From: Nitrospinota bacterium
Lineage (GTDB): Bacteria > Nitrospinota_A > UBA7883
DNA length: 64,000 nt
Assembly (NCBI GenBank): GCA_965223725.1
Contig: CBDCXE010000003.1
Coordinates: 156,689-220,688, forward strand
Reading direction: 5' to 3'
A program made the position numbers and the translations under genes. Shown here one piece after another: positions 8,234-60,092 of the stretch. The stretch's first letter is position 1. The number at the start of each line of letters is the position of its first letter. A model generated the notes under the pieces. The model had not been told where the DNA came from, made no database searches, and saw nothing but the letters and a program-made list of their open reading frames with translations.

Positions 8234-8327
8234 GGAAGATGAGCGCGCCCGGTGGCGCGGCTGGACTTCAAATCCAGACAGGGGCGAATACGTCCTGGGA
8301 GGGTTCGACTCCCTTCATCTTCCGCCA
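8234..8327 (+). tRNA. selC: tRNA-Sec (selenocysteine tRNA, anticodon UCA)
   Basis: 94 nt: 8-bp acceptor stem GGAAGATG/CATCTTCC, 6-bp D-stem with 4-nt loop, anticodon loop CTTCAAA (UCA), long variable arm, T-arm GGTTCGACTCC, discriminator G, encoded CCA; near-identical in all arms to E. coli selC. Confidence 0.9.
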
Positions 8328-8377
8328 TATCTTCAATGATAACTATGGAATTAAACGACAATGAACATTCCAGCAAT

Positions 8378-25220: not shown

Positions 25221-26465
25221 ATGAATAACCGCGACAGAACCGGGATGAAACAAAGCTTTACCACCGGCGAGGTGGATCAGGGTCTGGTTCAGTTCCTTCT
25301 TGATCTCGGCATATCCCTCTCCTCCGAGTTGTATATCGACAAGCTGCTGGAAAAAATAGTCGATGAAGCGCTGAGAATAACCAACGCGGATGGTTGCTCG
25401 CTATACCTGGTGCACGAAGACGGCATGCTCCACTTCACCATTAGTAAAAACAAATCGCTGAAGATGAATATCGGCGGCTATTCCGGCACACCGGTGCAGT
25501 ACGCCCCGGTCCCGCTGGATCCTGCGTTTGTTTCCGCCTATGCGGCCATCCACAACAAAATTGTCAATATACGGGATGTCTATAAATCATCCGAGTTCGA
25601 TTTTACCGGGCCCAAAAAATATGATCTTCTGAACGAATACCACAGCGAGTCGATGCTGGTCTCTCCGCTCACCAACCATGAGGGCGAAGTGATCGGCGTC
25701 ATGCAGCTGCTAAACGCCATCGACCCTGCCAACGGCGGCGTCATACCGTTCGACAAAAAGTTCGAGGTGCTGATAAAATCGTTGTCCAGTTTCGCGGCTA
25801 TGGCGATAACCAATGTCCGCCTGGTGGATGAAACCCGGGAGCGGGCGCGGCTGCTCAAAGACGCCAATCTGGACGCCATATACAGCCTGGCCATGGCGGC
25901 GGAGGAAAAGGACGACACCACCGGCGAGCATGTGCGCAGGATACAGATGTACTCCACGGTGCTCTCCAGCAAGCTGGGGCAGTCGGATCGCTATTCCGAC
26001 GAAATCGGGTATTCATCGATCATGCATGATGTGGGCAAGCTGTCCATTCCGGACAGCATTATAAAAAAGCCGGCCAAGCTCTCCTCGGAGGAGTTTGATA
26101 TTATGAAAACCCACACAACCGCGGGGGAACGAATATTGCCCTCAAGCACATTTTTCGAGATAGCCCGGCAGATAGCCAAATGCCACCATGAAAAGTGGGA
26201 TGGCTCTGGCTATCCGGATGGCCTGGTGGGTGAGGATATTCCGTTGCCCGCCCGGATAGTGGCGGTGGCGGATGTGTTCGACGCGTTGACCAACGCCCGG
26301 CCGTATAAAGAGTCGTGGCCTGTCGAAAAAGCGTTGGAAGAACTGAAGAGAAACTCCGGCTCCCATTTCGATCCATATCTCATCGGTGTTTGGGAGAAGC
26401 TGTGCAAACAAGGCACCCCCCAGCAAATTGCGGAAAAAATGAAGCAGAGAGAAAGCCTGCCGTAA
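25221..26465 (+). CDS. GAF domain + HD-GYP domain protein (probable c-di-GMP phosphodiesterase)
   Basis: HD motif MHDVGKL; HHEKWDGSGYPDGL (GYP). Confidence 0.85.
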   Translation: MNNRDRTGMKQSFTTGEVDQGLVQFLLDLGISLSSELYIDKLLEKIVDEALRITNADGCSLYLVHEDGMLHFTISKNKSLKMNIGGYSGTPVQYAPVPLDPAFVSAYAAIHNKIVNIRDVYKSSEFDFTGPKKYDLLNEYHSESMLVSPLTNHEGEVIGVMQLLNAIDPANGGVIPFDKKFEVLIKSLSSFAAMAITNVRLVDETRERARLLKDANLDAIYSLAMAAEEKDDTTGEHVRRIQMYSTVLSSKLGQSDRYSDEIGYSSIMHDVGKLSIPDSIIKKPAKLSSEEFDIMKTHTTAGERILPSSTFFEIARQIAKCHHEKWDGSGYPDGLVGEDIPLPARIVAVADVFDALTNARPYKESWPVEKALEELKRNSGSHFDPYLIGVWEKLCKQGTPQQIAEKMKQRESLP

Positions 26466-35731: not shown

Positions 35732-36424
35732 ATGAAAAATTTTCTCTATCTGCTTTTCAAATCGTTTGTGGATGTGGTCCCTCTGATCGTGGTGATCTTC
35801 TTCTTCCAGGTGATCGTCATGGGCAAAACTTTTGAGAACCCGATCCAGATCGGCGGCGGGCTGGTCCTGGTGATCTTCGGGCTGTTCCTGTTCATGCGCG
35901 GGCTGGAGGTCGGCCTCTTCCCGCTGGGCGAGAGCATGGCATACTCCTTCGCCGAACGGGGCAACATATGGCTGCTGCTATCGTTCGCCGCCGCCATCGG
36001 CTATACAACCACCATCGCCGAACCTGCGCTAATCGCCATCGCCGACAAAGCGGAGATCATCACCGACGGCAAGCTGACCGCCTTCTCATTGCGTAACGCT
36101 GTGGCCATCGGTGTGGCGGCCGGCATCGCCATCGGCACGTTGCGGATCATCCTGGGCCACCCGATCCACTACTACATAATCACCGGCTACATGATCGTGA
36201 TGGTGGTCACCATTTTTGCGCCGCAGGAGATCATCGGCCTGGCCTACGACAGCGGCGGCGTCACCACATCCACCGTCACCGTCCCGCTGGTGACTGCGCT
36301 GGGGGTAGGGTTAGCGAACTCCATCGCCGGGCGCAACCCGATGATCGACGGGTTCGGGTTAATCGCCTTCGCGTCGCTGACACCGATGATCACCGTCATG
36401 GGATACGGGTTGATCATGCTATGA
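35732..36424 (+). CDS. DUF1538 family membrane protein
   Basis: Polytopic; internal duplication typical of DUF1538; paralogous to the next gene. Confidence 0.7.
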   Translation: MKNFLYLLFKSFVDVVPLIVVIFFFQVIVMGKTFENPIQIGGGLVLVIFGLFLFMRGLEVGLFPLGESMAYSFAERGNIWLLLSFAAAIGYTTTIAEPALIAIADKAEIITDGKLTAFSLRNAVAIGVAAGIAIGTLRIILGHPIHYYIITGYMIVMVVTIFAPQEIIGLAYDSGGVTTSTVTVPLVTALGVGLANSIAGRNPMIDGFGLIAFASLTPMITVMGYGLIML

Positions 36425-37143
36425 GAGCCGCACTCGAAACCATAGCGTTCGACTTCCTGTCGGTCATCCGCGATGTAGGGCCGATGCTGGCGGTGATCCT
36501 GTTTTACCAGCTTGCCATCCTGCGGAAAAAACTGCCGAACGTGAAGATGATCATCCTCGGCTTCCTTGCGGTGATGGGCGGGTTGTACCTGTTTTTGATC
36601 GGTCTGGACATCAGCATCTTCCCCATCGGCGAGGCATTGGCAGAGCAGTTCGCCGTGGGCGAAAACCGGTGGTGGCTTTACGCCTTCGCGTTCGCCATGG
36701 GCTATTCCACCACCATGGCGGAACCGGCGCTGCTGGCCATCGCCATCAAGGCCGAAGAGATATCCGCCGGCGGCCTGCCCAGCCTCTACCTGCGAAACGC
36801 CGTGGCCACCGGTGTGGCGCTCGGTTTGACGCTGGGTGTGTATCGGCTGATCTCGGGCGACCCTTTGTGGATATATATACTGATTGGATATATCGTCACC
36901 ATAGCGCTGACCTACGCCGCGCCGAAGGAGATAGTGCCGCTGGCGTACGACAGCGGCGGTGTGACCACATCTACCATCACGGTGCCGTTGGTGGCGGCGC
37001 TGGGCCTAGGGTTGGCGACACATATCCCGGGCCGCAACCCGCTGATCGACGGGTTCGGGCTGATCGCCTTCGCGTCGGTGTTCCCTATGATTTCGGTATT
37101 GGGCTACGCAACCATAATAAAATTAAAAAATCGAAGTGTATAA
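36421..37143 (+). CDS. DUF1538 family membrane protein (paralogue)
   Basis: Clear paralogy with the upstream gene (…AYDSGGVTTSTxTVPLV…GRNPxIDGFGLIAFAS…); start overlaps the upstream stop. Confidence 0.7.
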   Translation: MRAALETIAFDFLSVIRDVGPMLAVILFYQLAILRKKLPNVKMIILGFLAVMGGLYLFLIGLDISIFPIGEALAEQFAVGENRWWLYAFAFAMGYSTTMAEPALLAIAIKAEEISAGGLPSLYLRNAVATGVALGLTLGVYRLISGDPLWIYILIGYIVTIALTYAAPKEIVPLAYDSGGVTTSTITVPLVAALGLGLATHIPGRNPLIDGFGLIAFASVFPMISVLGYATIIKLKNRSV

Positions 37144-37159
37144 TCAGGAGGTATGAACA

Positions 37160-37507
37160 ATGTTTAACCTTATATTTACAATCTGCCCGGCGGATAACCA
37201 GACAGAGGTCATGGAAGCGGCGAAGGCCACCGGCGCGCGGGGCGCCACCATACTATCCGCCAGGGGCACAGGGCATAAGGAGGCGACCACCTTTTTCGGG
37301 CTGAGCCTCGACCGGCCGCAGGAGGCGATGGTAATGCTGGTGGAGAAGGGCCATAGCGCGGATATCATGCAGGCGATCTACGACGCTGGTAATATGAAAG
37401 AGCCGGGCAATGGCATATGCTTTTCGCTGCCGGTGGACCATGCCATGGGGCTGGAGAGCCAGCTGTGCGTGCTGCCGGATGATGATAACGATGATGATGA
37501 CCAGTGA
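37160..37507 (+). CDS. P-II (GlnB)-like signal-transduction protein with acidic C-terminal tail
   Basis: PII-like fold pattern (TGARGATILSARGTGHKE ... T-loop-like region) and the conserved DUF1538/PII-like genomic association; tail LPDDDNDDDDQ. Confidence 0.55.
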   Translation: MFNLIFTICPADNQTEVMEAAKATGARGATILSARGTGHKEATTFFGLSLDRPQEAMVMLVEKGHSADIMQAIYDAGNMKEPGNGICFSLPVDHAMGLESQLCVLPDDDNDDDDQ

Positions 37508-37551
37508 CGGTCTGTTTGATACAATATAGTATTGGAACAAGGAGAGGTTTG

Positions 37552-37767
37552 ATGACGAAGAAGACGATAAATATTGATGGCATGAGCTGCGGCCATTGCA
37601 TAAACTGGATATCTGAAGCGCTGGAGAAGATCGATGGGGTGGAGACTGCGAAGGTGAGCCTAGAAGCGCAAAACGCCAACGTGGAATACGACGAAAATAT
37701 AGTGACCGAGCAGATGATGCAAGGCGCCATAGAAAAAGCTGGATATACGGTCAAATCATTTACATAA
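37552..37767 (+). CDS. heavy-metal-associated (HMA) domain protein, CopZ-like
   Basis: GMSCGHC metal-binding motif; AAGGAGAGG RBS before the ATG at 37552. Confidence 0.8.
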   Translation: MTKKTINIDGMSCGHCINWISEALEKIDGVETAKVSLEAQNANVEYDENIVTEQMMQGAIEKAGYTVKSFT

Positions 37768-37802: not shown

Positions 37803-39032
37803 ATGAGCCGTACGGCTTCGGTAATTACAATAGTTGCGACCATTTTTGCGTTGTCGCTGGCGTTCGCTTTTACTGGACCAGGCAAAGGAATTTATAAGCC
37901 GGGCCCTTTACTGTCGGGGCATGAAAGGTTTGGGACCGCTTGCCAGGCTTGTCACGAAAGATGGAGCGACCCATCGGAAGAAAAATGTATAGTTTGCCAC
38001 CAGCATCTTAAGAAAGACGACACCCACTCGGCCAAAGCAATGGCGAATCCGGTCAAGGCCGTTATCCCGGCCGAACTGGAGAAGCTAGGCTGTGTGTCAT
38101 GCCATATGGAGCATATGGCTGACATCATTTCATCCGGATATACCGGCCCGCTCGACTTTTGTATCGGTTGCCATCCGGTGGATAAGCTGAACCTGGGGCA
38201 CAAAAAATTTGGCAATAAATCGTGCGCCGAATCGTCGTGCCATAACTATCATTACAACCTGCCCGTAGAAGAATTTAAAACTTCCAGTAATGTCCGGCTA
38301 TTGCCATCTACCATAAAGGTAGTAAAGCCAGAGCCGAAAGAGCGCTTTAAAGCGACCGATGAAGTGATGGAGGCCATGCGCGGCTCCAAATTTTATAAAT
38401 CGAACAAGATAATATCCGCCCAGTATAACCTGAGCGATCACAACGGCACTGAGGCCACATGCGACAAGTGCCATAAAACGAAACTCGGTTTGCGAACCCT
38501 TCAGCCATCGATTAATGTTTGCATGTCTTGCCATGAGTATCAGACCAGGACGTTTGGGTTTGGCAGGCATGGCGCCCCGTCGCGGCTGAAGGTCGCGCCG
38601 GCGGAAGATGAAAGCGCGCAGGTCGGATGCGGGTCGTGCCACGATGTGCACAGCCTGAGGCAGGAAAACTCCAGATATCAGGCATGCGTCCGGTGCCATG
38701 AAAATGACCATGAATTAAATTACAGTAAATCCGGGCATTCGCGGTACCTGACCGACCCTGTGTTTAATCTGAAGCCGATGAAAGGCGCCGACTGCGCCAC
38801 CTGCCATATGCCATTGATGGAAAACGCCCAGGGGGCCACCATGCATAATGAAAGCTATACATCATCATCCAGATGGAAAATGGCTGAAACCGTATGCGTG
38901 CGGTGCCACGGCCTGGAGTTTGCGCTGCGTGGCCTGTATGACAATGGTATGGTCAAGCATGGCTTCACATTCTCGCCAGACTCCACCCCGGTGGGGATTG
39001 AATACGGATTCCGTAAAACGGATGTAAAATAG
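37803..39032 (+). CDS. multiheme (deca-heme) cytochrome c, secreted
   Basis: Signal peptide; 10 CXXCH motifs (CQACH, CIVCH, CVSCH, CIGCH, CDKCH, CMSCH, CGSCH, CVRCH, CATCH, CVRCH) plus one CX4CH. Confidence 0.85.
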   Translation: MSRTASVITIVATIFALSLAFAFTGPGKGIYKPGPLLSGHERFGTACQACHERWSDPSEEKCIVCHQHLKKDDTHSAKAMANPVKAVIPAELEKLGCVSCHMEHMADIISSGYTGPLDFCIGCHPVDKLNLGHKKFGNKSCAESSCHNYHYNLPVEEFKTSSNVRLLPSTIKVVKPEPKERFKATDEVMEAMRGSKFYKSNKIISAQYNLSDHNGTEATCDKCHKTKLGLRTLQPSINVCMSCHEYQTRTFGFGRHGAPSRLKVAPAEDESAQVGCGSCHDVHSLRQENSRYQACVRCHENDHELNYSKSGHSRYLTDPVFNLKPMKGADCATCHMPLMENAQGATMHNESYTSSSRWKMAETVCVRCHGLEFALRGLYDNGMVKHGFTFSPDSTPVGIEYGFRKTDVK

Positions 39033-39065: not shown

Positions 39066-40520
39066 ATGTATTCACAATCACAAACATTAAAATCTCTGGT
39101 CAATTCACCGCAATTGGCGGGCGCCCCGGTGGAAGCGGTGGAAAACCTGATCGAACATGGAGATTTGACCCACATCCCCGCCGGGGAAGTGATCATCGAA
39201 GAGGGCGAGTTCGAGATGATCAGTTACTATGTCCTGGAAGGGAAGTTCCAGATCCGGGTCACCGACAGAGAGACAGGCGAAAAACGCCTGGCATGGGAAG
39301 TGGGCCCCGGTAAAATTCTGGGCGCCATGGCTATATTGGGCGGCACACCCCGCATCGCCGAGGTGAAATGCGTCAAGAACGCCACAATGTTAAGGATAGA
39401 GCGGAAGCACCTGCTCGACTTCCTGGCGGCGGCCCCCACTGTAAAAGCGCGCTTGGATAATACGTATAAGGAAAAGGCGCTTTTGCACGTCTTGATGAAG
39501 GTCGACTTTTTCTCTCATATAGAAGGGCCGGTGATGCAGGCGCTGGCCAAGAAGGTCGAACTGAAGTTCTATAAAAAGGGTGACGTGATCTTCTATCACG
39601 GGGACCGGGCCGAAGAGTTTTTCATGATCCGGGACGGATTCGTGAAGGTTTCCCGCGCCATCAGCGAGGCGGACGCCGCGTTTTTCGATTCCCGGTTCGA
39701 CAAGACCCAGATAAACCCGATGAAAGAGCAGAAAGATGAAGAGTTCATTATGGGCTATATTGGCCCGGGCCAATATTTCGGCGAGCTGGCGCTGTTCGAT
39801 AACCGAAGACGCTCCGCCACGGTCACGGCGTTGACCCGGCTGGAACTGGTGGTTATCACAAGAAATGATTTCCAGGCCCTGATACTGCGCTATCCGGAGA
39901 TAGGGCAGAGGATGCGGGAAGTGGCGGATTATCGATATGCAAGTGACAAACAGCTGGCCCAGTCGAAGCAGGATATGCTCAAATGGGTGGCCAGCCATGA
40001 CATACTGGCGGCGGAGTCGCTGTTGATCCTGGATCTGAACCAATGCATGCGCTGCCTCAACTGCATCAGCGCCTGCGCCAAGCTCCATGACGGCGTCACC
40101 CGCATCACCCATAACGGTGTGCGCTATAAAAATATATTGATACCCACATCGTGCCGCCACTGCCGCGAACCGACCTGCATGATAGGCTGCCCCACCGGCG
40201 CGATACAGCGCGACATCCATGGCGAAGTGTTCCACACCGATTCATGTATCGGGTGCGGCAATTGCGCGTCTCGGTGCCCCTTTGGCAATATCAGCATTGT
40301 GGAGCTGAGCAGCGGTAAAAAGTGGTGGGCGCGTCCGGGCCGTGGCAACGGTGGATCCCCGAAGGCGCGGATCCCCGCCAAGATAGACAAGCGTGCCGTT
40401 AAATGCGATATGTGTATGGATTACGATTACATGGGTTGCGAGCATAACTGCCCCACGGGCGCCATCAAATCGGTCAAGCCATCCGAATATTTCGCCAAAT
40501 ATTCACAGGAAGACAAATGA
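39066..40520 (+). CDS. protein with two cyclic-nucleotide-binding domains fused to 4Fe-4S ferredoxin (polyferredoxin) domains
   Basis: Two cNMP-binding beta-roll segments (GEVIIEEGE...RIAEVKC; GDVIFYHGD...RRSATVTA) and four Cys clusters (CMRCLNCISAC, CRHCREPTCMIGCP, CIGCGNCASRCP, CDMCMDYDYMGCEHNCP). Confidence 0.8.
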   Translation: MYSQSQTLKSLVNSPQLAGAPVEAVENLIEHGDLTHIPAGEVIIEEGEFEMISYYVLEGKFQIRVTDRETGEKRLAWEVGPGKILGAMAILGGTPRIAEVKCVKNATMLRIERKHLLDFLAAAPTVKARLDNTYKEKALLHVLMKVDFFSHIEGPVMQALAKKVELKFYKKGDVIFYHGDRAEEFFMIRDGFVKVSRAISEADAAFFDSRFDKTQINPMKEQKDEEFIMGYIGPGQYFGELALFDNRRRSATVTALTRLELVVITRNDFQALILRYPEIGQRMREVADYRYASDKQLAQSKQDMLKWVASHDILAAESLLILDLNQCMRCLNCISACAKLHDGVTRITHNGVRYKNILIPTSCRHCREPTCMIGCPTGAIQRDIHGEVFHTDSCIGCGNCASRCPFGNISIVELSSGKKWWARPGRGNGGSPKARIPAKIDKRAVKCDMCMDYDYMGCEHNCPTGAIKSVKPSEYFAKYSQEDK

Positions 40521-41329
40521 CCGACGAAGCTTATCGTTTATTGGCCCTTAGCGCGGCCACGGTATTGATCGCATTCGGTATTGGTTTCGTAGAGCCGTTC
40601 GCCTATGAGAGGTCGTTTGGATCATTTTCCATCAAGCCGTATTTCGGTTGGCTAACCTTGCTTTTTGCCATCGTCTCTGCGTTATACAGCCTCCGCAAAA
40701 GGGTTGTCATACAGCTCCCGGGCAGACTAATTGTCTGGAAACTGGCGCACATAATCCTTGGCCTTACCGTGCTGGTCCTGATGTATCTGCATTCTGGCGG
40801 GGCCATGGGGCAAGGAGCTTCGCTGGCGGTAAATTTACTGGTGGTCGGGCTGCTGCTGACTGGGGTCTGGGGCATAATTAACCAGGGATTGATACCCAGG
40901 ATAATGACCGAATCGTTGGAGGATCCGGTCTATAAAAGCGAATTGCAAGATGATGTGAACGAAATGCTAAAAGAAATCTCTGATGATCTGGACGAGCAGT
41001 CACCCGAGTTTAACCGGATCTACCAGCGCCATATATTACCGGCGATCACTCTGGAACATCCCACGGAAGGTAACCAGAAAGCGCTCTATCAACGTTACGA
41101 CCCATCCTCCAACGATCCCACCGCCGCCATCCAAGACCTGAACGCCATGAGCCTGGGTGAAATTGAAGATTTCTACCAAATGGCCGAGAAGGTGATGGAC
41201 ATTGTGGAAATCCGCCGAAGCCAGACTTATCAGCGTAACATGAACCATTGGCTTGTTTGGCACGTGGGTATGACCGCGGCGTTGGGTGTGGCCCTTTTTT
41301 TCCATGTGCTCGCTTCGCTATATTTTTAA
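40517..41329 (+). CDS. hypothetical integral membrane protein (4-5 TM), last gene of cytochrome operon
   Basis: Hydrophobicity; start overlaps the stop of the upstream gene. Confidence 0.5.
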   Translation: MTDEAYRLLALSAATVLIAFGIGFVEPFAYERSFGSFSIKPYFGWLTLLFAIVSALYSLRKRVVIQLPGRLIVWKLAHIILGLTVLVLMYLHSGGAMGQGASLAVNLLVVGLLLTGVWGIINQGLIPRIMTESLEDPVYKSELQDDVNEMLKEISDDLDEQSPEFNRIYQRHILPAITLEHPTEGNQKALYQRYDPSSNDPTAAIQDLNAMSLGEIEDFYQMAEKVMDIVEIRRSQTYQRNMNHWLVWHVGMTAALGVALFFHVLASLYF

Positions 41330-41386
41330 TGGAACTCTGGAATGGTTTGTTATAGTATTGAAAAAGTTTAATTTGGGAGATTGTTA

Positions 41387-41758
41387 ATGAGTGATACATT
41401 GAAAAAAGTTTTATTGATAGTGACCACCAGCGATGAAGAGACCTTCCGCGCAGGGATGCTCAACGCCGCCAACCTGCTGGCGTCTGATGTAGAGGTGCAG
41501 TTTTTCATCAGCCAGCAAGCGTGCAATTTTTTTACCAAAAGCAGTTTTGACAGCGCGCCGGATGGGACAACGACTGTGAAGGGCCGGGTCACCGATGCGA
41601 TGAAACTTGGGGCCAGTATAATTATCTGCCGAACAGCCATCGCCAACTATGGCCTGGGGCCGGAGGATTTCATCGACGGTGTGGACGCCACAAAAGGCTG
41701 GATGGATATCGTTGATGACCAGATCGATCCTAACGTACAGGTTGTGTGGGTTGGATAG
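41387..41758 (+). CDS. DsrE/DsrF-like family protein
   Basis: KKVLLIVTTSDEET...QFFISQQA pattern of the DsrE/YchN-like fold; GGGAGA RBS before the ATG at 41387. Confidence 0.55.
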   Translation: MSDTLKKVLLIVTTSDEETFRAGMLNAANLLASDVEVQFFISQQACNFFTKSSFDSAPDGTTTVKGRVTDAMKLGASIIICRTAIANYGLGPEDFIDGVDATKGWMDIVDDQIDPNVQVVWVG

Positions 41759-43408: not shown

Positions 43409-44107
43409 CTAGGCGCGAAACTCGAAAGTGTAGGAGCCGATGCTGAATTGATCTTCATCAGCAAGCTTATGATTTGTGATCTTGTTGCCGTTCATCTTCA
43501 GCTTGGAATACCCGCCCTGATAGGCGATAAAATAACCGTCGGCAGATTTGGTGACGCTGGCGGCTACTTTGCCGATGAAAAAGCCGCTGATCTTTATATC
43601 AGAATTGGGGCCAGAGCCGATCAATGTGGTTTCCTTTTCCAGCCTGAAGGCCTTTGGAGGGCCGGATGATTGATGGATCAATATTTTCGAAGGTTTTTCT
43701 TCCGCTTCCTTTTTCGCCAGGGTTGATTCACTTATTATATTTCTGATTTGCCCTGTATCCACCATAACGGTCATCCCTCCGATATCATCTTCGCGATCGA
43801 AAGCGTCAACCGGGCTCGATTCCTCATCCGGGTTGCGATATTTCAGGTGGAACCGCCCTATGGTAATCACATCGCCGGAGCGCAGCTCCTGCACCGCCAC
43901 TTGCTTGGAATTAATAAAGGTGCCGTTGGTACTGTCCAAATCGTGGACTATGAACCTGTTCCCCACTTTTTCGATCTTTACATGGGCGGCGGATACTGTA
44001 GGGTTTTTCAGGATGATATCCCCCTTTTCGCGCCCCACAGCAATGGTCTTTATAAGATTAATCTCTTTAAAGACTTTATCCTTACTGGATATAGTTAACG
44101 TAGCCAT
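43409..44107 (-). CDS. protein with two FHA domains
   Basis: N-terminal FHA (TIAVGREKGDIILKNPTVSAAHVKIE...LDSTNGTFIN) and a second FHA-like C-terminal half. Confidence 0.75.
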   Translation of the reverse strand: MATLTISSKDKVFKEINLIKTIAVGREKGDIILKNPTVSAAHVKIEKVGNRFIVHDLDSTNGTFINSKQVAVQELRSGDVITIGRFHLKYRNPDEESSPVDAFDREDDIGGMTVMVDTGQIRNIISESTLAKKEAEEKPSKILIHQSSGPPKAFRLEKETTLIGSGPNSDIKISGFFIGKVAASVTKSADGYFIAYQGGYSKLKMNGNKITNHKLADEDQFSIGSYTFEFRA

Positions 44108-50803: not shown

Positions 50804-52033
50804 ATGCAAATAAACTATGCAAAGCAGGAGGTGTCTTGCAAGATCGTCTATTATGGGCCGGGGATGAGCGGCAAGACAACCAACCTGGAGATAATACACC
50901 AAAAGGTTCCTGAAGATAACAAAGGGCAAATGACATCTATCGCCACAGAAGGCGATCGCACCCTGTTTTTCGATTTTCTGCCTTTGGACCTGGGCAACGT
51001 GAGGGGTATGACGACCAAGTTCCAGCTTTATACCGTGCCGGGGCAGGTCTACTACGCTTCCACAAGGAAGTTGGTGTTGCAAGGCGCCGATGGCGTTATA
51101 TTTGTCGCCGACTCTCAGGCGGACAAGCTGGCCGAGAATATCGAGTCGTTTGAAGATCTTAAGGAGAACCTGAGTGAATCGAGGATCGATATTGAGGAAA
51201 TACCGTTTGTGATGCAGTGGAACAAGCGTGACCTTCCGGGCGCCATGCCGATAGAAGAGCTGGAAGAAAAAGTAAACCTGATCAACGCGCCGTCCGTATC
51301 GGCGGTGGCGGCGACTGGTGAGGGAGTGCTGGAGACATTGAAAATGATAGCGTCCCTGGTATTGGAGAGGCTCAATAGCAGTGATAAAGCAGAACAACCC
51401 GCCGCCAAGCCGGCGCCAGCGCAAGCGCCCAAAAAAACGGATCATGGCGCCGATGAGTATATCGCCAAGGTCAACAACGATTCGATCTCGAAGGCGTATT
51501 TCAACCAGTATTGTCAGGTTCAGTACAGGCTGGGTGTTAAAAACGATGCAGTGAGTGATTTTAAAAAGTTTACACTGGAAGAGAAAAAGAGACTGCTCGA
51601 TTCCTTGATCAACTATGTCCTGCTGCTACAAGACGCTAAAAGCCGTGGTTTAAAAGCGGACAGGAGTGAGGTGTCTGCCCAGTTAAGTTCGTTCAGTAAT
51701 AAGTTTCGCGCCAGGGAAGAGCTCGATAAATTCCTGGAAACGCGTAACCTCACCATGGACAATCTGCGCAATGAGGCCATTAAAAACATCATCATCGGAA
51801 AAATCATCCATGATGTTATTCCCGATGTACAGCAGAGGGTTCGAATATCAGAAAATGAGATGCGCGATCACTATAATGAAAACAAGAATAAATACGGTGA
51901 TAAGCCGTTGGATCAGGTGAAAAGGGATGTAGCTTCCTATTTAAAGGCCATCAAAAAACGCGCTTTACTCAACGAGTTTTACAGTAAACTACGATCCCGG
52001 GCCTCTATTGAAGTGAGGGAAGATAAATTATAA
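50804..52033 (+). CDS. mglA: MglA-family Ras-like small GTPase fused to a C-terminal SurA-N-like chaperone domain
   Basis: N-terminal ~190 aa near-collinear with MglA (KIVYYGPGMSGKTTNL, DRTLFFDFLPL, YTVPGQVYY, NKRD); Ala/Pro-rich linker; C-terminal ~200 aa matches the SurA/PpiD N-terminal domain pattern (LLDSLINYVLLLQDAKSRGLKADRSEV ...). Confidence 0.8.
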   Translation: MQINYAKQEVSCKIVYYGPGMSGKTTNLEIIHQKVPEDNKGQMTSIATEGDRTLFFDFLPLDLGNVRGMTTKFQLYTVPGQVYYASTRKLVLQGADGVIFVADSQADKLAENIESFEDLKENLSESRIDIEEIPFVMQWNKRDLPGAMPIEELEEKVNLINAPSVSAVAATGEGVLETLKMIASLVLERLNSSDKAEQPAAKPAPAQAPKKTDHGADEYIAKVNNDSISKAYFNQYCQVQYRLGVKNDAVSDFKKFTLEEKKRLLDSLINYVLLLQDAKSRGLKADRSEVSAQLSSFSNKFRAREELDKFLETRNLTMDNLRNEAIKNIIIGKIIHDVIPDVQQRVRISENEMRDHYNENKNKYGDKPLDQVKRDVASYLKAIKKRALLNEFYSKLRSRASIEVREDKL

Positions 52034-52051
52034 CAGTTTTGAGGTGAGCCG

Positions 52052-52552
52052 ATGAAAGATAACAAACTGCGGGACCAACGGCTTGTGTATTACAAAGAGG
52101 ATCTCGACCAGATTGATAAGCTAGTTTCAGAGTTTCTTAAACTATCCAATGCAAGATGTCTTTTTCTTATAGACAAGGAAGGGCACTCCATCACCAGCTC
52201 TGGCTCCACCCAGGAGATAGACCCGGAGACTATTTCCGCCCTTGTGGCTGGCTCCTTCGCCGCCACCAAAGAGTTGGCCAGAACATTGGGCGAGAGTGAA
52301 TTTTCCGTCATGTTTCATCAAGGCAAGACTGATAATATCCATGTGTCACTGATCGGGGACAGGGCCATAACCGCCATAGTATTCGACGAGAAAACCACTG
52401 TTGGCATGATAAATCTGTATTCGAAGGAGCTGACCAGCAAACTGGAAAAAATATTTGATATAGCGTCACGACGGGTAGCCCAACAAAGCGTGATAGAAAC
52501 CAATTATTCAGAGTCTGTAAAAGATAAACTGGACGATATGTTTAAAGACTGA
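52052..52552 (+). CDS. Roadblock/LC7 domain protein (MglB-like, third copy)
   Basis: CLFLIDKEGHSITSSGS ... AITAIVFD pattern. Confidence 0.65.
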   Translation: MKDNKLRDQRLVYYKEDLDQIDKLVSEFLKLSNARCLFLIDKEGHSITSSGSTQEIDPETISALVAGSFAATKELARTLGESEFSVMFHQGKTDNIHVSLIGDRAITAIVFDEKTTVGMINLYSKELTSKLEKIFDIASRRVAQQSVIETNYSESVKDKLDDMFKD

Positions 52553-52583
52553 GCCATTTCACTAGGCTGAATAAAGCTTCGTC

Positions 52584-54503
52584 TTGCAAAGGCATATGAA
52601 AAAAACAAGCTGGATGGTATGTTGCCTGATAATCGCGCTTTTTTATATTTCAAATGAAGGCGCTTTTGCCTATGGCGCGGATGAGCAGGGGACCTATCTG
52701 CCGTTAAACCGTTTTAATGAAGGCTCCCTTGTTTCCCACAGCGAGCTGTCGGACGCCCTTTGGTCCTGGAAAGAATCGATAGACTCCGCCGATCGTGTGG
52801 AAGCGCTGGAGGCCACCAGCAGGGTCCAGAGCTCCGTCGATCATTTTGGGCCACGCAATTTTATATCCCTCGCCGATTTTTTTATTTCTGCAGGCAGAAC
52901 AGCCATAAAGAATAATAACTATGAAGGCGCCGTTCTGGCCGGTAAAAACGCCGCCATGTTCGCGCCAGATTATCCTGCGGCAAACTTTTTTCTGGCTGAC
53001 GCTTTGTTTAAACAAGACAAGTTAAATATCAGCAGCGTAGTTTATTCCATGGTGGCGGGAATAAAATCGAAGTTAACAAATCGTTTGGAGCGCAACAGGC
53101 TGGTCTCATTCCATATGCTATATTTTCTGTTGTCTTTAGCCGTGGCGTTTGTCGCGTGTTTCCTGGTTATGCTCTATACCAACATTCACACATTGTTTGC
53201 CGATATAGCGCTCCGTTTGCCGTTCAAGCCGGGTCGGTACGTCAAGCTCGCTATTATAGCCTTGTTAATTATTTTGCCCTTCGCCCTAGGTGGTTGTTTG
53301 TTGTTCGCCATGGCTCTGCCATTGCTGACCTGGCCATACCTGCGGCCAGCGGGCCGGATGATTGTTCTGCTGTTCGCTATATTTATTCTGATCGTTCCAC
53401 CAAGTTTCAAACTGTTGGCCACAGCCGAAGTGATACAGAAAGAAGATACTTACAAGACGCTGTTATCGCTGACTGATCAAACGTGGGACCATGAGATGAT
53501 CGCGGCGCTGGAACGGGAATACGACAGCCACCCTGATAACGATCTGACCACATTTGCATTGGGTAATTTATATCATCTGGCCGGCATGGATGAAAAAGCC
53601 ATCGCCGTGTATGACGCGTTGCTGGCCATGGACCCAGGGAACGTACAGGTTATGGTGAACAAGGCGAATATATACTTCGAACTGAAAGATTATGAAAGCG
53701 CCAGAAAGCTTTATAACGAAGCGCTGGTGGTGGACCCAAAGTCTGTGGAAGCGCACTATAACCTGGCAAATACTTACACTGCGCTGTTTCGCACCAAGGA
53801 TTCCGACATTGCATACCAGAAAGCTCGCAGTATTAATCCGGAAAAAACCGACAGTTTCAGGGTCGCCCTTGAAAGTAATCCGGATAAAAAAGTATTTGGC
53901 TTTCCAATCACGAAAAAACATTTGAAACAATACAGAAAAACCATGAGCCCGAAAGTTGAATCGTTGGCTTCGGCGTTCTGGGTAACTTATTTTGGCGCCA
54001 CATCGCGCAATGCTTACTACTTGCTGGCGGTGTTGTTTTTATTGGTTGTCTGCCTGCTCTATTTAGTGTGGCATCGTGTTATCGCCCACCAGACCTGCTC
54101 TTCATGCGGCAAGCCGTTTCTTCCCCCTATCCATGTCAAATCACCAGACCCTAGGTGTAACCAGTGTGTGGCGACACAAAGCACAAAAAAAGTTGTGTCG
54201 ACAGCTAAAAAAGAGAGCAAGCGCAAGAAGATAAGGATATATCAATCACGCCGCGCTACCATCGCCAGGATCATGGACAGGGTATTGCCCGGCATGGGGC
54301 GGACCTTTTTTCAACCTACGATCACAGGGTTTGTATTAACATTTGTCACATTCTGGCTCCTGATCTATGTGGGTGTATACCTGTATGACGCCGCAGTTTT
54401 GCAATTGGGCGTTTTGGCAAGTTACTGGAAGCTTTCTATTATCGTGGTGGCGGCGCTTTACTGGCTGAGTATGAACACATTTCTTAAACGGGAATTTTAT
54501 TGA
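52584..54503 (+). CDS. polytopic membrane protein with TPR repeats and a Cys4 zinc-ribbon
   Basis: Signal/TM, TPR repeats (e.g. AIAVYDALLAMDPGNVQVMVNKANIYFELKDYESARKLYNEALVVDP), multiple TM helices, CSSCGKPF...CNQC zinc-ribbon, basic stretch. Confidence 0.6.
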   Translation: MQRHMKKTSWMVCCLIIALFYISNEGAFAYGADEQGTYLPLNRFNEGSLVSHSELSDALWSWKESIDSADRVEALEATSRVQSSVDHFGPRNFISLADFFISAGRTAIKNNNYEGAVLAGKNAAMFAPDYPAANFFLADALFKQDKLNISSVVYSMVAGIKSKLTNRLERNRLVSFHMLYFLLSLAVAFVACFLVMLYTNIHTLFADIALRLPFKPGRYVKLAIIALLIILPFALGGCLLFAMALPLLTWPYLRPAGRMIVLLFAIFILIVPPSFKLLATAEVIQKEDTYKTLLSLTDQTWDHEMIAALEREYDSHPDNDLTTFALGNLYHLAGMDEKAIAVYDALLAMDPGNVQVMVNKANIYFELKDYESARKLYNEALVVDPKSVEAHYNLANTYTALFRTKDSDIAYQKARSINPEKTDSFRVALESNPDKKVFGFPITKKHLKQYRKTMSPKVESLASAFWVTYFGATSRNAYYLLAVLFLLVVCLLYLVWHRVIAHQTCSSCGKPFLPPIHVKSPDPRCNQCVATQSTKKVVSTAKKESKRKKIRIYQSRRATIARIMDRVLPGMGRTFFQPTITGFVLTFVTFWLLIYVGVYLYDAAVLQLGVLASYWKLSIIVVAALYWLSMNTFLKREFY

Positions 54504-54504
54504 T

Positions 54505-55704
54505 ATGGCCCTTAGAGGAAGCCTGGACGATTTTAATATCGTAAACATCCTGCAGATGATAAAGCTGGAGAACAAAACCGGCAAGCTGTCCCTGAACGAA
54601 CTGGATGACCAGGTGAACATTACCTTCGATGATGGCAAAATAGTCTATGCGGAGGGCACAATCGAAAGTGATGAGAAACGTCTTCAATCAACACTGCTCA
54701 GCAACTATATGATCCGGCCCGAAGACTGGAAAGCGATTGAAACAGAACATGAAAACAGGCTCACGTCTTACTGGGATATCCTTCCGAGATATGTGAACCA
54801 TCAGGCGCTTTCGGAGCTGATCAGCCGCCAGGTGGTCGATAACGTTTACTATGCGTTGAGATGGTCCAAAGGGACATACGAATTCACGCCAATGAAAAGC
54901 GTCACGTACAACAAAAGCACAATGCCCCACCGGGATGTGGATGGGATGCTGATGGATGGTGTTCATGTGGCCGACTTATGGGTCAAGACCAGCGCTTATA
55001 TGCCCCCCATGGGCACTTACGTTGAAAAAAATATCATGGGCGAAGTGGAAGCTGGTGGAGCCCTGGATAATACAGATAGCGCGGAGAGCAGGGAGGATTT
55101 CATAGGATCGCTGGAGCATGAGATCCTGACAGCCCGCGGCGTCTCCCTTACCGATCAGGAAACAAAAGTCCTCGCTGTACTGGTTGAAAGCAAGACGATA
55201 GATGGTATTTTAAATTCCGCCCGTCAAAATAAATATGACTCATTACAGGCGTGCCAGTCGTTACTAAAGGCCGGGATCATTAAAGAGGTGAGACCAGGTG
55301 ATCAAACCGCAGCCAGGAAAGGCAACAGTAAATATTCAATAGGTGGGCTGGCCACGGTCCTGATTATAGCGGCGGTGGTAGTGGCGGGGGTGATCTACCA
55401 GCTGATAGCATGGCCCGACGGGCGGGCGGCCAGCGATAGCGGCTCTACAAAAGTTATGATTCATAACTCTGAGAAAGGGCTGAAAAAAATAGAGCATGCA
55501 ATTAAAATATATATTGCATTGAGCAGGGAATACCCCGACGATTTAAATAACCTGGTAAACTCTGGAGTATTGCAAAGCTCTGATATAGTGGATCCATGGG
55601 GCAGGGATTATGAACTGGTCATTACAGAAGATCGTTTTTCACTTTTTTCCCATGGTCCGGATGATATGACAACATCTGATAATATATATCTGCCTGCTAA
55701 TTAA
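54505..55704 (+). CDS. DUF4388 domain - TM helix - type II secretion pseudopilin (GspG)-like C-terminal domain protein
   Basis: N-terminal DUF4388 hallmark (GSLDDFNIVNILQMI); TM helix (LATVLIIAAVVVAGVIYQLI); C-terminus matches the GspG/T2SS_G domain (IKIYIALSREYPDDLNNLVNSGVL...DPWGRDYELVI...FSLFSHGPD); no prepilin cleavage motif. Confidence 0.7.
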   Translation: MALRGSLDDFNIVNILQMIKLENKTGKLSLNELDDQVNITFDDGKIVYAEGTIESDEKRLQSTLLSNYMIRPEDWKAIETEHENRLTSYWDILPRYVNHQALSELISRQVVDNVYYALRWSKGTYEFTPMKSVTYNKSTMPHRDVDGMLMDGVHVADLWVKTSAYMPPMGTYVEKNIMGEVEAGGALDNTDSAESREDFIGSLEHEILTARGVSLTDQETKVLAVLVESKTIDGILNSARQNKYDSLQACQSLLKAGIIKEVRPGDQTAARKGNSKYSIGGLATVLIIAAVVVAGVIYQLIAWPDGRAASDSGSTKVMIHNSEKGLKKIEHAIKIYIALSREYPDDLNNLVNSGVLQSSDIVDPWGRDYELVITEDRFSLFSHGPDDMTTSDNIYLPAN

Positions 55705-57294: not shown

Positions 57295-57810
57295 ATGAAA
57301 TCAAAAAGAGAACTTAAAGATATTTTAGAGAGCAGGAAAGCCCTGTTTAAACGTAAACCGGAAGCTGCTATTTACAAGCCGAAGGTGACCACGCAATGGA
57401 AAGGGGGCCTGCTGCATGAAAACAGTATAAGGGATCATATTGTAGAGTCGGACTATCCGGTTCCATCTGGCGGGTCCGATAAGGCGGCCAACCCTATGGA
57501 GTTGGTGCTTGCGTCGCTCGGCTCTTGTGTATCCGCTGTGTATATCGAATACGCCGTATTGATGGGTGTTACCCTAGACAGCGTGACCGTGGAGACGGAA
57601 GGGGTGATAGACCTGCGTGGATTGTTTAGCGTAGCCGATGATGTGCCTTCCGGGTTCGAGTCGATCACTTATAATGTAACCATCAAATCTGGCGAGGGTA
57701 AGGATGCGATCGATAAACTGATCGCCGTGGCGGAGAGCCACTGCCCGGTATCAGATTCGCTGAAAAGAAGCGTAACCGTAAAATCGAATGTCGAGGTAGT
57801 TTCCGGCTAA
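57295..57810 (+). CDS. OsmC/Ohr family protein
   Basis: Conserved Cys pair (LGSCVS ... ESHCPVSDSL). Confidence 0.8.
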   Translation: MKSKRELKDILESRKALFKRKPEAAIYKPKVTTQWKGGLLHENSIRDHIVESDYPVPSGGSDKAANPMELVLASLGSCVSAVYIEYAVLMGVTLDSVTVETEGVIDLRGLFSVADDVPSGFESITYNVTIKSGEGKDAIDKLIAVAESHCPVSDSLKRSVTVKSNVEVVSG

Positions 57811-60092
57811 CGGTTGACACCGCCCAAAAACGCTGGCCATATGGCGGCGTTTGGCTCTGTTTTACGATTGAACGAGTAGACGCTGATTTTACCATTCTGG
57901 CTTGCTGTGGCTATATCTACAGTTCCATCGCCGTTTATATCACCGACAGTTGGCGAGGCGACAAAGCTGTTGGCGCCTTCGACAGGGATGTTCAAAACCA
58001 CCTGTCGCCCAGCGACATCGACCACCGATATAGCGCCCTCCTGATCCAGCGCGATAATATTCAAAACGCCGTTATTATCGAAATCGACCAGCGCCAAAGA
58101 CGCTTTCACTTTTGCGCCCAGCGGCGCGCGCCAATCTTCTTCACCACTGGCCAGGTCCAGAATATGAATATCACCCTTCGTCGATACAATTGCGATCTCA
58201 GAAACATTGTCTCCATCCATATCGGCGATGACAGGGCTGGAAAAAAATTCACTTTTTACATCGTATTTCCATACTACCTTTCCATCCATCGATGAAAGGG
58301 CGATCAGTCCGCTCTCTTTTGTGGCGAATACTACCAGGCCCTTTTTACCCGCTTTACCATAAGCAGGCGAAGAGTATTGCACCGGCGGTATATTAGCGGA
58401 CCAGAGCAGGGCCGGTTTGTCACGACGGCCTGTCACGGCGGCGACTTTGCCGGAGCTGGAAACAGTGATAAATTCAGGAGGGCCATCCCGATTCAAATCA
58501 GCTAGCAAAGGAACGGCCACCAGCGCGCCGGTATCCAGGTGGGCGGTATCCCACAGCTTGGCGCCATTGCTACCGTCCAGCGCCACCAGTCCTTTTTTAA
58601 TGGTAGGAACAATTATGTCCGGAATGTTGTCGCCTGTGATATCCCGGATGGTCGGCATGTTGATGACACTGCCAAGCTGGAGGCCAGAGCCAGCTTTCCA
58701 TAAAGTTTTTCCTTTACCATCCAGAGCGGTCACACCCCCGGAATTATCGGCGATAATGATATCCTCTGATCCATCACCATCCAGGTCGGCGGTAGCTGGC
58801 GCCGCAAAAACAGGCGCCGAGTTGTCGACTTTAAACAACTGTTTGCCATCTTGCCCGTTGAAGGCGAGCGCCATACCGGTGGCAGACGCAATAATAACAT
58901 CCAGCGAACCATCACCATTGATATCAGCCAGGGCAGGGGTGGCCGGGTTGCTGGCGCTGTGGGTCATGCTTTGCTCCCACATTAGTTTGCTGTCGAGCCT
59001 TTGCAAACTATCTCCGCCCTGCCGCGCCAGGTTTCCCCCAGGCTCACCTTTCGATCTGCTCTCCCACAGCTCCAGGCCTTTAATTTTTTCGATCAATGGG
59101 TTCAAAGTTGTCGTATCTATCAGGCCGGGGCTGAACGCGGAGTTAACAATGAAACCGGCTATAATAAGGCTCAGCAACGCTAGTAACCAGCCAAACATCG
59201 GATAATGGGTTGAACGTTTGACCGATGTTGAATCAAAATCGATCTCTTCTTCATCAATATCTTTGAAATCGGGGAAATTATCTTTTGGACCGCCAACACT
59301 GGCGACAATATCCTCCGGGACAGAGAGGTCTTCGATATCATGCACCACCGTCTCCCCCGCAGTTGATTCAACCTTATCGTCCGATATGTCCAAATCAGTG
59401 GCAGGTATCCTGATGACTGTCAGGTCAGGGTCAGCCTTGCTTTTCCCTACCATAAACCGGACCAGATCAAATCCGACCTTGTCACCTTCATTCAGTTCTG
59501 ATTCCCTGGTTTCCACCCCATTCACAAAAGTTCCGTTGATAGACGCCAGATCCTCGACCATTAACTTGCCACCTTTTATATAGAGCTGCGCATGCTTCCG
59601 GGAAACTCCGTCTGATTTGATAACAATATCGTTCGACTCGTCACGGCCGACCGTCTGGGTCGACGTGATAAAAAATTTCATTTTTTGAAAGTCTTTACTT
59701 TGGCCCTCGATATACCATTTTGTATTCTCTTTTGTGGGTGACCCGATTTCTATTTCTGGTTCCGCTGGCGCTTGCGCGTCCAGTTCCATCCTGGCGAATT
59801 CATCTGGATCAATATCCATAACCTTGATGGTTGAATTGCCCAGCTTGATGATATCCTGTGGCTCTAACTTATGCTTTTCGTCGATGCATTCATCATTCAC
59901 AACAGTGCCGGAGGCGCTATCGAGGTCCAAAACATAGATTTCGTCCTCTTCGGTAATTATTTCAGCATGAAAATCATCGATCCAACGATCTTTCAGGATA
60001 ATATCGTTCTTTGGATCGGCGCCAATACGCAACCGGGGTGTGTCGAGAACCATCCGCTCCTGATCAATTCCACTGATATTTAAAACTATCAT
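57807..60092 (-). CDS. transmembrane protein with two N-terminal FHA domains and a C-terminal FG-GAP-type beta-propeller
   Basis: Two FHA modules; a TM helix (MFGWLLALLSLIIAGFIV); seven D-x-[DN]-G-D-G repeats (INGDGSLDVII, DLDGDGSEDIII, ITGDNIPDII, DLNRDGPPEFI, DMDGDNVSEIAI, DFDNNGVLNIIA, DINGDGTVDIA). Confidence 0.75.
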   Translation of the reverse strand: MIVLNISGIDQERMVLDTPRLRIGADPKNDIILKDRWIDDFHAEIITEEDEIYVLDLDSASGTVVNDECIDEKHKLEPQDIIKLGNSTIKVMDIDPDEFARMELDAQAPAEPEIEIGSPTKENTKWYIEGQSKDFQKMKFFITSTQTVGRDESNDIVIKSDGVSRKHAQLYIKGGKLMVEDLASINGTFVNGVETRESELNEGDKVGFDLVRFMVGKSKADPDLTVIRIPATDLDISDDKVESTAGETVVHDIEDLSVPEDIVASVGGPKDNFPDFKDIDEEEIDFDSTSVKRSTHYPMFGWLLALLSLIIAGFIVNSAFSPGLIDTTTLNPLIEKIKGLELWESRSKGEPGGNLARQGGDSLQRLDSKLMWEQSMTHSASNPATPALADINGDGSLDVIIASATGMALAFNGQDGKQLFKVDNSAPVFAAPATADLDGDGSEDIIIADNSGGVTALDGKGKTLWKAGSGLQLGSVINMPTIRDITGDNIPDIIVPTIKKGLVALDGSNGAKLWDTAHLDTGALVAVPLLADLNRDGPPEFITVSSSGKVAAVTGRRDKPALLWSANIPPVQYSSPAYGKAGKKGLVVFATKESGLIALSSMDGKVVWKYDVKSEFFSSPVIADMDGDNVSEIAIVSTKGDIHILDLASGEEDWRAPLGAKVKASLALVDFDNNGVLNIIALDQEGAISVVDVAGRQVVLNIPVEGANSFVASPTVGDINGDGTVDIATASQNGKISVYSFNRKTEPNAAIWPAFLGGVNR

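Follow-up and report, generated by a model that had tools for sequence, protein, structure and literature searches.

The stretch analysed here, referred to as the window, comprises 64,000 nucleotides (64 kb) of contig CBDCXE010000003.1 from a Nitrospinota bacterium. The gene in question is an open reading frame (ORF) at 39066..40520 on the forward strand, whose 484-residue product joins two cyclic-nucleotide-binding (CNB) domains to a ferredoxin module with cysteine motifs for four [4Fe-4S] clusters; we call it the cNMP-FeS protein, cNMP standing for cyclic nucleoside monophosphate. An earlier note on this DNA had proposed the same gene model and had placed the gene between a decaheme cytochrome and a small membrane protein, and both statements were confirmed. 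The genes and domains concerned are as follows.

37803..39032, plus strand: periplasmic multiheme cytochrome c of 409 residues, with 10 CxxCH motifs and 1 CX4CH motif and a signal or anchor segment at residues 1-27, PtdG-like (motif count, Pfam)
39066..40520, plus strand: cNMP-FeS protein of 484 residues, made of CNB-A, CNB-B and a 4x[4Fe-4S] module (Pfam, NCBIfam, AlphaFold2 (AF2) model, Foldseek)
39129..39500, plus strand: CNB-A, residues ~22-145 (AF2 model, alignment of relatives)
39525..39953, plus strand: CNB-B, residues ~154-296, with an insert of ~25 residues at residues ~200-225 (Pfam, AF2 model)
40020..40487, plus strand: four-cluster ferredoxin module of the HycB/HydN type, residues 319-474, with 16 Cys in four groups (NCBIfam, alignments)
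40517..41329, plus strand: inner-membrane partner of 270 residues with five transmembrane (TM) helices, similar to PtdF and to the inner-membrane protein (IMP) of PCC4 (motifs, model, conservation)

The public model of the gene (P0001, 463 residues) starts 21 residues after the ATG at 39066. Since the residues encoded by 39066..39128 include a family-conserved N-terminal motif, LxxxPxFxG (LVNSPQLAG here), the longer start is favoured and the public model is probably truncated. The protein has no signal peptide and no hydrophobic or TM segment, and is therefore predicted to be cytoplasmic. The Pfam family cNMP_binding (PF00027) matches with 131.4 bits against a cut-off of 27.5 (E=1.2e-38), the match being split into three stretches that make up two domains, as domain B is interrupted by its insert. 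Several 4Fe-4S families of the Fer4 group match over residues 357-467, and Fer4_11 (PF13247) is matched with E=4.2e-7. Neither Pfam nor NCBIfam gave a helix-turn-helix (HTH) family at E<=0.01. In the AF2 model (mean pLDDT 86.9, pTM 0.74, built on an alignment of 99 relatives) beta-roll domains with helices occupy residues ~22-145 and 154-296 and a ferredoxin fold begins at residue 319, so that CNB-B and the ferredoxin are joined by only two linker helices (277-296 and 299-310). The description of the protein as two cNMP-binding domains plus a four-cluster ferredoxin, lacking an HTH and hence no transcription factor, is thus borne out.

To judge the conservation of each part, relatives were sampled in three sets, namely 99 sequences aligned at 31-60% identity, 84 further distinct sequences from reference genomes, and 89 related loci. 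The sensor half was compared with known structures, and its residues 38-274 can be aligned in one piece with the tandem CNB domains of PKA RI-alpha (residues 67-269) and PKG I. The PKA regulatory subunits (PKA-R; RI-alpha and RII) and the regulatory region of PKG also share its two consecutive CNB domains structurally (Foldseek E~1e-22), the best matches in PDB being to the PKG/PKA-R tandem CNB-A/B at E=2.5e-22 and probability 1.00. As both the sequence and the structure matches span the tandem, the sensor half is assigned, by alignment and by predicted fold, to the PKA-R/PKG type and not to that of a CAP dimer, which replaces the CAP/CRP-type beta-rolls of the earlier note. The output is different, as the tandem is followed here by an Fe-S wire and in PKA-R and PKG by a kinase-inhibitory segment; moreover the host is bacterial, domain B carries the insert of ~25 residues and domain A lacks its Glu. 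A bacterial precedent for a CNB domain that allosterically controls a fused module without DNA-binding function is mycobacterial Pat, the cAMP-regulated acetyltransferase. Pat is the best NCBIfam match of the N-terminal half, far under the cut-off (69.5 versus 460 bits), and differs in having a single CNB domain, a GNAT acetyltransferase as output and no redox cofactors.

The two phosphate-binding cassettes are not equivalent. In CNB-B (residues 239-253, nucleotides 39780-39824, GELALFDNRRRSATV) the cassette is canonical, as in PKA-R and PKG; it reads GELAL..RRSATV (G239-E240...R249-S-A-T-V) and agrees with the pattern G-E-x-A...R-[STA]-A. The cassette of CNB-A (residues 86-100, nucleotides 39321-39365, GAMAILGGTPRIAEV) reads G86-A87...R96-I97-A98-E-V, that is G-A..R-I-A, with Ala in place of Glu and Ile in place of Ser/Thr. 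The G-E...R-[ST]-A signature that had been assigned to each domain is therefore present in domain B and absent from domain A, where Ala87 and Ile97 break it. It may be noted that Glu occupies position 87 in 98 of the 99 aligned relatives and in all 83 genome-derived sequences that could be aligned there, the window protein being the sole exception among ~180 relatives. A one-base error does not account for this, because the A87 codon (GCC, 39324-39326) is two changes away from either Glu codon. Position 92 is also peculiar, with a Gly found only in the window protein and Ser/Thr in 94 of the 99 relatives. Domain A of this particular protein is thus probably impaired, while domain B has all the marks of a canonical site. 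Across the family the G-E..R-x-A residues are essentially invariant in both domains: G86, R96, G239, E240 and R249 do not vary in the 99 aligned relatives, and among the 84 genome-derived sequences the pocket departs from this in a single Tyr at R249, a single Met at A251 and a sequence with gaps in all eight cassette columns. Since the Arg that contacts the cyclic phosphate and the Glu that contacts the ribose are kept in both domains across phyla, we read the CNB domains as probably working cNMP sites, and binding of a cyclic nucleotide at domain B of the window protein is likely.

The C-terminal module has its 16 cysteines in the order and spacing of the four Cys groups of the Fer4_11 group: C327-x2-C-x2-C-x3-C, C363-x2-C-x4-C-x3-CP, C394-x2-C-x2-C-x3-CP and C447-x2-C-x7-C-x3-CP. 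The earlier claim of four CxxCxxCxxxCP-type motifs holds in that there are four complete Cys groups, but the literal spacing occurs in the third group only (C394). All 16 Cys are invariant in the 99 relatives and in the 84 further sequences. Residues 319-473 align end to end with the four-cluster ferredoxin HydN and with the N-terminus of AegA in NCBIfam, and fall short of the equivalog cut-offs (44.4 versus 260 bits for HydN, 46.7 versus 1003 bits for AegA), so the module appears related to these named proteins and yet to be none of them. Residues 320-474 align to residues 6-161 of HycB3 of the hydrogen-dependent CO2 reductase (7qv7_A, E=1.3e-15), and alignments were also obtained with HycB of formate hydrogenlyase, ArrB and NrfC/PsrB. 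The closest analogues are HycB3/HycB4 (7qv7), HycB (7z0s) and HydN, which are cytoplasmic four-[4Fe-4S] ferredoxins acting purely as electron wires and aligning over their full length. Unlike these, the window module is fused to a sensor tandem, and its partner is a putative diheme membrane protein instead of a hydrogenase or formate dehydrogenase.

The gene of the membrane partner begins within the Fe-S gene, the start of the one overlapping the stop of the other by 4 nt (ATGA). Its product is predicted to fold into five long TM helices, with a helical cytoplasmic insert of ~115 residues between TM4 and TM5. It carries W74-x3-H78-x13-H92 on TM3, W245-x3-H249-x13-H263 on TM5 and T115-G116-x-x-G119 on TM4, the last being an SGXXG motif in which Thr replaces Ser. 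No Pfam family at E<=0.01 and no NCBIfam family was found for it, and a profile search against PDB sequences returned nothing meaningful (best E=0.52). In 84 distinct partners H78, H92, H249, H263, W74, W245, G116 and G119 are essentially invariant, and in an alignment of eight partners (19-54% identity) the four His make up four of only 15 invariant columns. The protein is thus a probable diheme cytochrome b, and the complement of four clusters and two b hemes is very likely on these patterns. Its N-terminus is placed in the cytoplasm because the Arg/Lys-rich TM2-TM3 loop and natural fusions to the Fe-S protein (see below) both point that way; therefore H78/H249 should lie close to the inner face of the membrane and H92/H263 close to the outer one, an arrangement that would be that of a diheme cytochrome b spanning the membrane.

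A four-cluster Fe-S subunit on a diheme cytochrome b anchor is known from NarH-NarI and FdnH-FdnI, although a molybdoenzyme subunit is missing here. In comparison with NarI and FdnI, the membrane partner has no detectable sequence relationship, and the outer partner is a multiheme cytochrome where theirs is quinol. The ferric-reductase-domain superfamily (NOX, FRE, MsrQ/YedZ) was also considered; its Pfam family PF01794 is not matched by the membrane partner, and the resemblance between the two is limited to the motif pattern and a weak similarity of fold. Ferric reductases have six TM helices as against five here, where the large cytoplasmic helical insert separates TM4 from TM5, and their donor is an FAD/NADPH domain, whereas here it would be an Fe-S wire.

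More than 100 full-length relatives of the cNMP-FeS protein exist, named at most "cyclic nucleotide-binding domain-containing protein", and relatives occur in at least 569 species-level genomes, with Nitrospinota, Nitrospirales, Acidobacteriota, Verrucomicrobiia and Dormibacterota among those listed; the closest ones carry Nitrospinota/Nitrospinae labels. The IlvD protein encoded in the window shares 78-84% identity with proteins of Nitrospinota/Nitrospinae metagenome-assembled genomes, and the DNA is accordingly assigned to an uncultured bacterium of the Nitrospinota lineage. An index-free search gave 493 clusters at 50% identity (E<=1e-30). In close relatives the cassette of multiheme cytochrome, cNMP-FeS protein and ~270-residue membrane protein recurs amid differing flanking genes, and relatives at 33-36% identity keep the same partners, sometimes with the gene order changed. 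By profile search, a homologue of the membrane protein lies directly downstream on the same strand in 88 of the 89 loci, the remaining one being a contig of 2 kb that breaks off at the gene. Of the 89 loci, 81 have a same-strand member of the homologous decaheme family, and in 87 of 88 a multiheme ORF of some kind is found no more than 4 kb away. In 14 independent clusters at 50% identity the cNMP-FeS protein and the membrane protein are joined in one polypeptide chain that retains both WX3HX13H motifs, and one of these clusters also has a long N-terminal extension. Such natural fusions (the Rosetta-stone argument) suggest that the Fe-S and membrane proteins act as one physical unit with the Fe-S module on the cytoplasmic face. 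The link with the downstream membrane protein that the earlier note had suspected is strongly upheld by the 88 loci and 14 fusions, and we consider it nearly certain that the cNMP-FeS protein belongs to a membrane complex. What the note had missed is that the protein belongs, as one subunit, to a conserved module of three parts that spans the membrane.

A long form of the gene is present in 39 of the 89 loci. It has ~340 extra N-terminal residues with Fer2_4, NuoG-type 4Fe-4S and 2x[4Fe-4S] domains, which places the sensor tandem between two Fe-S modules, and it is preceded by a gene for a NuoE-like/NuoF-like fusion with the FMN/NADH site. The long forms retain all pocket residues and Cys except for the single Tyr at R249. 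Beside the short-form cassettes, no conserved gene for a cytoplasmic donor or for cNMP metabolism recurs beyond the three core genes.

Some loci of the relatives show further arrangements. In several Nitrospinota metagenome-assembled genomes (L015-L022, L017/L018) there is a second cNMP-FeS paralogue, ~35% identical and with its own membrane partner, so that two paralogous cassettes coexist. An apparent duplication of the cassette on contig JAJRZK010000024.1 (67,712 bp; L010/L011) was rejected, as the two ranges are mirror images about the midpoint and the partner sequences are identical; it is probably a palindromic assembly artefact. In L003 (1202..2472) and L004 (1362..2633) the cassette adjoins genes for bacterial microcompartment shell proteins (BMC, EutN/CcmL, CsoS1D-like) and an aldehyde dehydrogenase, and these shell genes are not found in the window. 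In the distant relative L007 (972..4932) genes for a GAF-HD-cNMP_binding protein and a receiver-HD protein directly precede the cNMP-FeS gene, a hint that some lineages may have a local link to nucleotide signalling.

The cassette corresponds to gene clusters that have been described twice from genomes. He et al. 2017 (PMC5566968) reported "PCC3/PCC4" clusters in iron oxidisers, whose inner-membrane proteins of ~300 residues and five TM helices carry WX3HX13H on both TM3 and TM5 as well as an SGXXG motif on TM4, and were proposed to bind two b hemes. In their PCC4 subgroup II a pfam13247 Fe-S gene lies directly upstream of the IMP gene, together with 4-, 5- and 10-heme cytochromes and a porin, and in one genome the Fe-S and membrane genes were annotated as a single gene (PMC5566968). 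A 2024 preprint (10.1101/2023.11.21.568154) renamed the PCC4 cluster ptdABCDEFG and termed its function completely unknown, which agrees with the 2017 paper in leaving the function unassigned. What the window shares with PtdE-PtdF-PtdG and PCC4 subgroup II is a cNMP-binding 4Fe-4S gene directly upstream of a ferric-reductase-like 5-TM gene, plus a periplasmic decaheme. The membrane partner has the five TM helices and the WX3HX13H motifs on TM3 and TM5 in common with PtdF and the PCC4 IMP, apart from the Thr for Ser in SGXXG. On the papers' descriptions, which are the only basis of this comparison, the window cassette matches the Fe-S/IMP/decaheme core of PCC4, or PtdEFG. It differs in comprising three genes only, with no porin, tetraheme, pentaheme or FAD/NAD(P) oxidoreductase, and in having the decaheme gene first, where ptd has it last. 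The preprint counts two clusters in PtdE, while the window protein has four complete motifs. Our literature searches for experimental work on cNMP/Fe-S fusions returned only these two genomic descriptions (PMC5566968, 10.1101/2023.11.21.568154). With its three genes and its degenerate first site, the window system is a minimal member of a widespread family which two studies have noticed and none has characterised.

On the whole we lean towards the explanation that the three proteins form a cNMP-gated conduit which carries electrons outward through the inner membrane. The 484-residue protein would be the cytoplasmic entry subunit, its four-[4Fe-4S] wire docking on the cytoplasmic helical insert and face of the 5-TM protein. 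The latter would bind two b hemes, one near each face, with H78/H249 and H92/H263 as ligands, and the periplasmic decaheme encoded upstream would be the outer partner that takes electrons from them. Electrons would then pass from a cytoplasmic donor to the Fe-S wire, the two b hemes and the decaheme. In the long form the chain would run from NADH through FMN, Fe-S clusters, the cNMP tandem, the four [4Fe-4S] clusters and the two b hemes to the decaheme; for the short form, as in the window, ferredoxin is the leading guess for the donor. Outward flow seems the likelier direction, because it follows the membrane potential and the expected redox ladder and because the long form has an NADH-oxidising input. 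Binding of cAMP or cGMP, in the window protein probably at domain B only since domain A has lost its Glu, may reposition the tandem and thereby open or close the electron path or the access of the donor, in analogy to the release of the kinase by the same tandem in PKA. In the long form, where the tandem has an Fe-S module on either side, a change of conformation could connect or interrupt the wire. The earlier note had described an electron-transfer protein under allosteric control of cAMP or cGMP; the Fe-S electron-transfer protein with conserved cNMP pockets stands, while allosteric control is something that the conservation suggests, and we regard the arguments for and against actual gating as evenly balanced. 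A still bolder form, in which the PKA-R-like tandem physically switches the Fe-S wire of a second-messenger-gated, possibly quinone-independent conduit that would constitute a new type of NADH:cytochrome c oxidoreductase, is put forward as tentative.

Two alternatives accept the same complex and dispute one of its properties. The CNB tandem may not sense cyclic nucleotides at all and may serve as a scaffold, as a dimerisation module or as the site of another ligand, as the effector domains of many CRP/FNR-family proteins do. The lack of a conserved cyclase or phosphodiesterase nearby agrees with this, as do the missing Glu in domain A of the window protein and the trypanosome PKA-R, which has the same fold and binds nucleosides rather than cAMP (according to PDB titles). 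However, the cyclic-phosphate Arg and the ribose Glu have been lost from those CNB-fold proteins whose ligand is a different one (FNR, CooA, NtcA, trypanosome PKA-R). Here both residues are essentially invariant in both domains over ~180 sequences from several phyla at 30-60% identity, a pattern to be expected only under selection for the canonical ligand contacts, and we find a non-sensing tandem unlikely. The other alternative reverses the current, so that donors in the periplasm or outside the cell would feed the decaheme, then the b hemes and finally the Fe-S wire, or assumes a quinone-coupled variant, with electron exchange between the membrane protein and the quinone pool. There is a precedent, since in NarH/NarI a diheme b passes electrons inward to a four-cluster Fe-S protein, and the host lineage includes nitrite oxidisers, in which electrons originate in the periplasm. 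He et al. (PMC5566968) also proposed an uptake role with a quinone-active cytochrome b, the direction drawn for PCC4 in iron oxidisers. Inward flow would nevertheless oppose the membrane potential, and ferredoxin-type clusters and NAD+ are far more negative than cytochrome c; it would need a high-potential cytoplasmic acceptor, which is not encoded with the cassette. Besides, the NuoE/F/G-like module of the 39 long-form loci is a NADH-oxidising input in every known context. We hold inward flow to be rather unlikely, though it is the strongest competitor of the outward conduit.

The remaining two readings take the protein out of the complex altogether. A soluble, stand-alone cNMP-regulated ferredoxin serving cytoplasmic enzymes, with neighbours that are incidental, would suit the absence of a TM segment and the fact that HycB/HydN-type relatives serve soluble or peripheral enzymes. 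It is very improbable in view of the partner being kept in 88 of 89 loci across phyla despite varied flanks, of the translational coupling through ATGA and of the 14 fusion clusters. An atypical transcription factor of the CRP/FNR type, with Fe-S clusters as redox sensor, would have the CNB fold in its favour, along with weak partial NCBIfam matches to CRP that cover the cassette region only. But CRP/FNR proteins have a single CNB-type effector domain per chain, and this protein has two in succession, which match PKA-R/PKG over both domains; four-cluster HycB-type modules, moreover, are electron wires and not sensors. A hidden HTH was rejected as well, as none is found in Pfam or NCBIfam and the model leaves only the two linker helices, so that an ordinary CRP/FNR regulator is discarded and the atypical one is scarcely credible. 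The outward cNMP-gated conduit is thus retained as the best explanation.

Two further genes adjoin the cassette in the window.

37504..37767, plus strand: heavy-metal-associated (HMA) protein of 87 residues, directly upstream of the decaheme gene, membership in the cassette doubtful (Pfam)
41381..41758, plus strand: DsrE-like protein of 125 residues, directly downstream of the membrane partner, membership doubtful (E=2e-4, under the Pfam cut-off)

Their membership is doubtful because the adjacency is not conserved elsewhere; an HMA gene is absent beside the cassette in the relatives L001, L003 and L004. The flanks in the window altogether (a DUF1538 pair, P-II-like, HMA, DsrE-like and NadB-like genes) are not conserved at this place in relatives. 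Two DUF1538 membrane proteins, the P-II-like protein and the HMA protein are encoded in a tightly packed run on one strand (35732..37767, plus), and this set is likewise not found beside the cassettes of relatives. Scans of 35-42 kb for promoters and terminators yielded counts at the level of shuffled sequence and were uninformative on operon structure. Elsewhere in the 64-kb window no ORF has more than one CxxCH, and a search of 48 ORFs of the window found no nucleotide cyclase. A GAF and HD_5 (HD-GYP-type) protein is encoded at 25221..26465 (plus), 12.6 kb upstream of the cNMP-FeS gene. Other observations in the window include a tRNA-Sec gene (anticodon TCA) at 8234..8327 (plus); the ORF at 8252..9355, for a phosphonate-type periplasmic binding protein, overlaps it and for that reason probably has a later start, and it is followed by a HAMP-PAS-receiver protein at 9352..11154. 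An MtrH-like protein (tetrahydromethanopterin S-methyltransferase subunit H family) occurs in this bacterial context at 19612..20613 (plus). At 50804..55704 (plus) a run of genes encodes a small Arf/MglA-like GTPase with a fused SurA_N-like region, a Roadblock/LC7 (MglB-like) protein, and TPR and DUF4388 proteins, and looks like a polarity or motility-type GTPase module. FHA-domain proteins are found at 43409..44107 (minus) and 57807..60092 (minus), the larger one having two FHA domains and FG-GAP/PQQ-type beta-propeller repeats.

To our knowledge, there is essentially no documented case in bacteria of a second messenger that acts directly on the proteins of an electron-transfer chain, and the effects of cyclic nucleotides on respiration that we know of run via transcription factors; our literature searches, too, returned no example of such direct control. 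The present family puts a conserved cNMP sensor in an Fe-S wire tied to a probable diheme protein and a decaheme and, in many Acidobacteriota, also to an NADH dehydrogenase module. A family of ~270-residue proteins so far annotated as "hypothetical protein" thereby gains a concrete and testable role as a candidate diheme cytochrome b, and the compact three-gene system would be suited to reconstitution. If the proposed conduit is real, it would give a large set of uncultured soil and marine bacteria a route for moving electrons over the inner membrane without the classical quinone-dependent routes, together with a physiological signal that opens or closes it. Post-translational control of electron export to periplasmic multiheme cytochromes would then be a new principle in the regulation of respiration, and hundreds of species from soil and sea (Acidobacteriota, Nitrospinota, Nitrospirales and Verrucomicrobiia) would have it.

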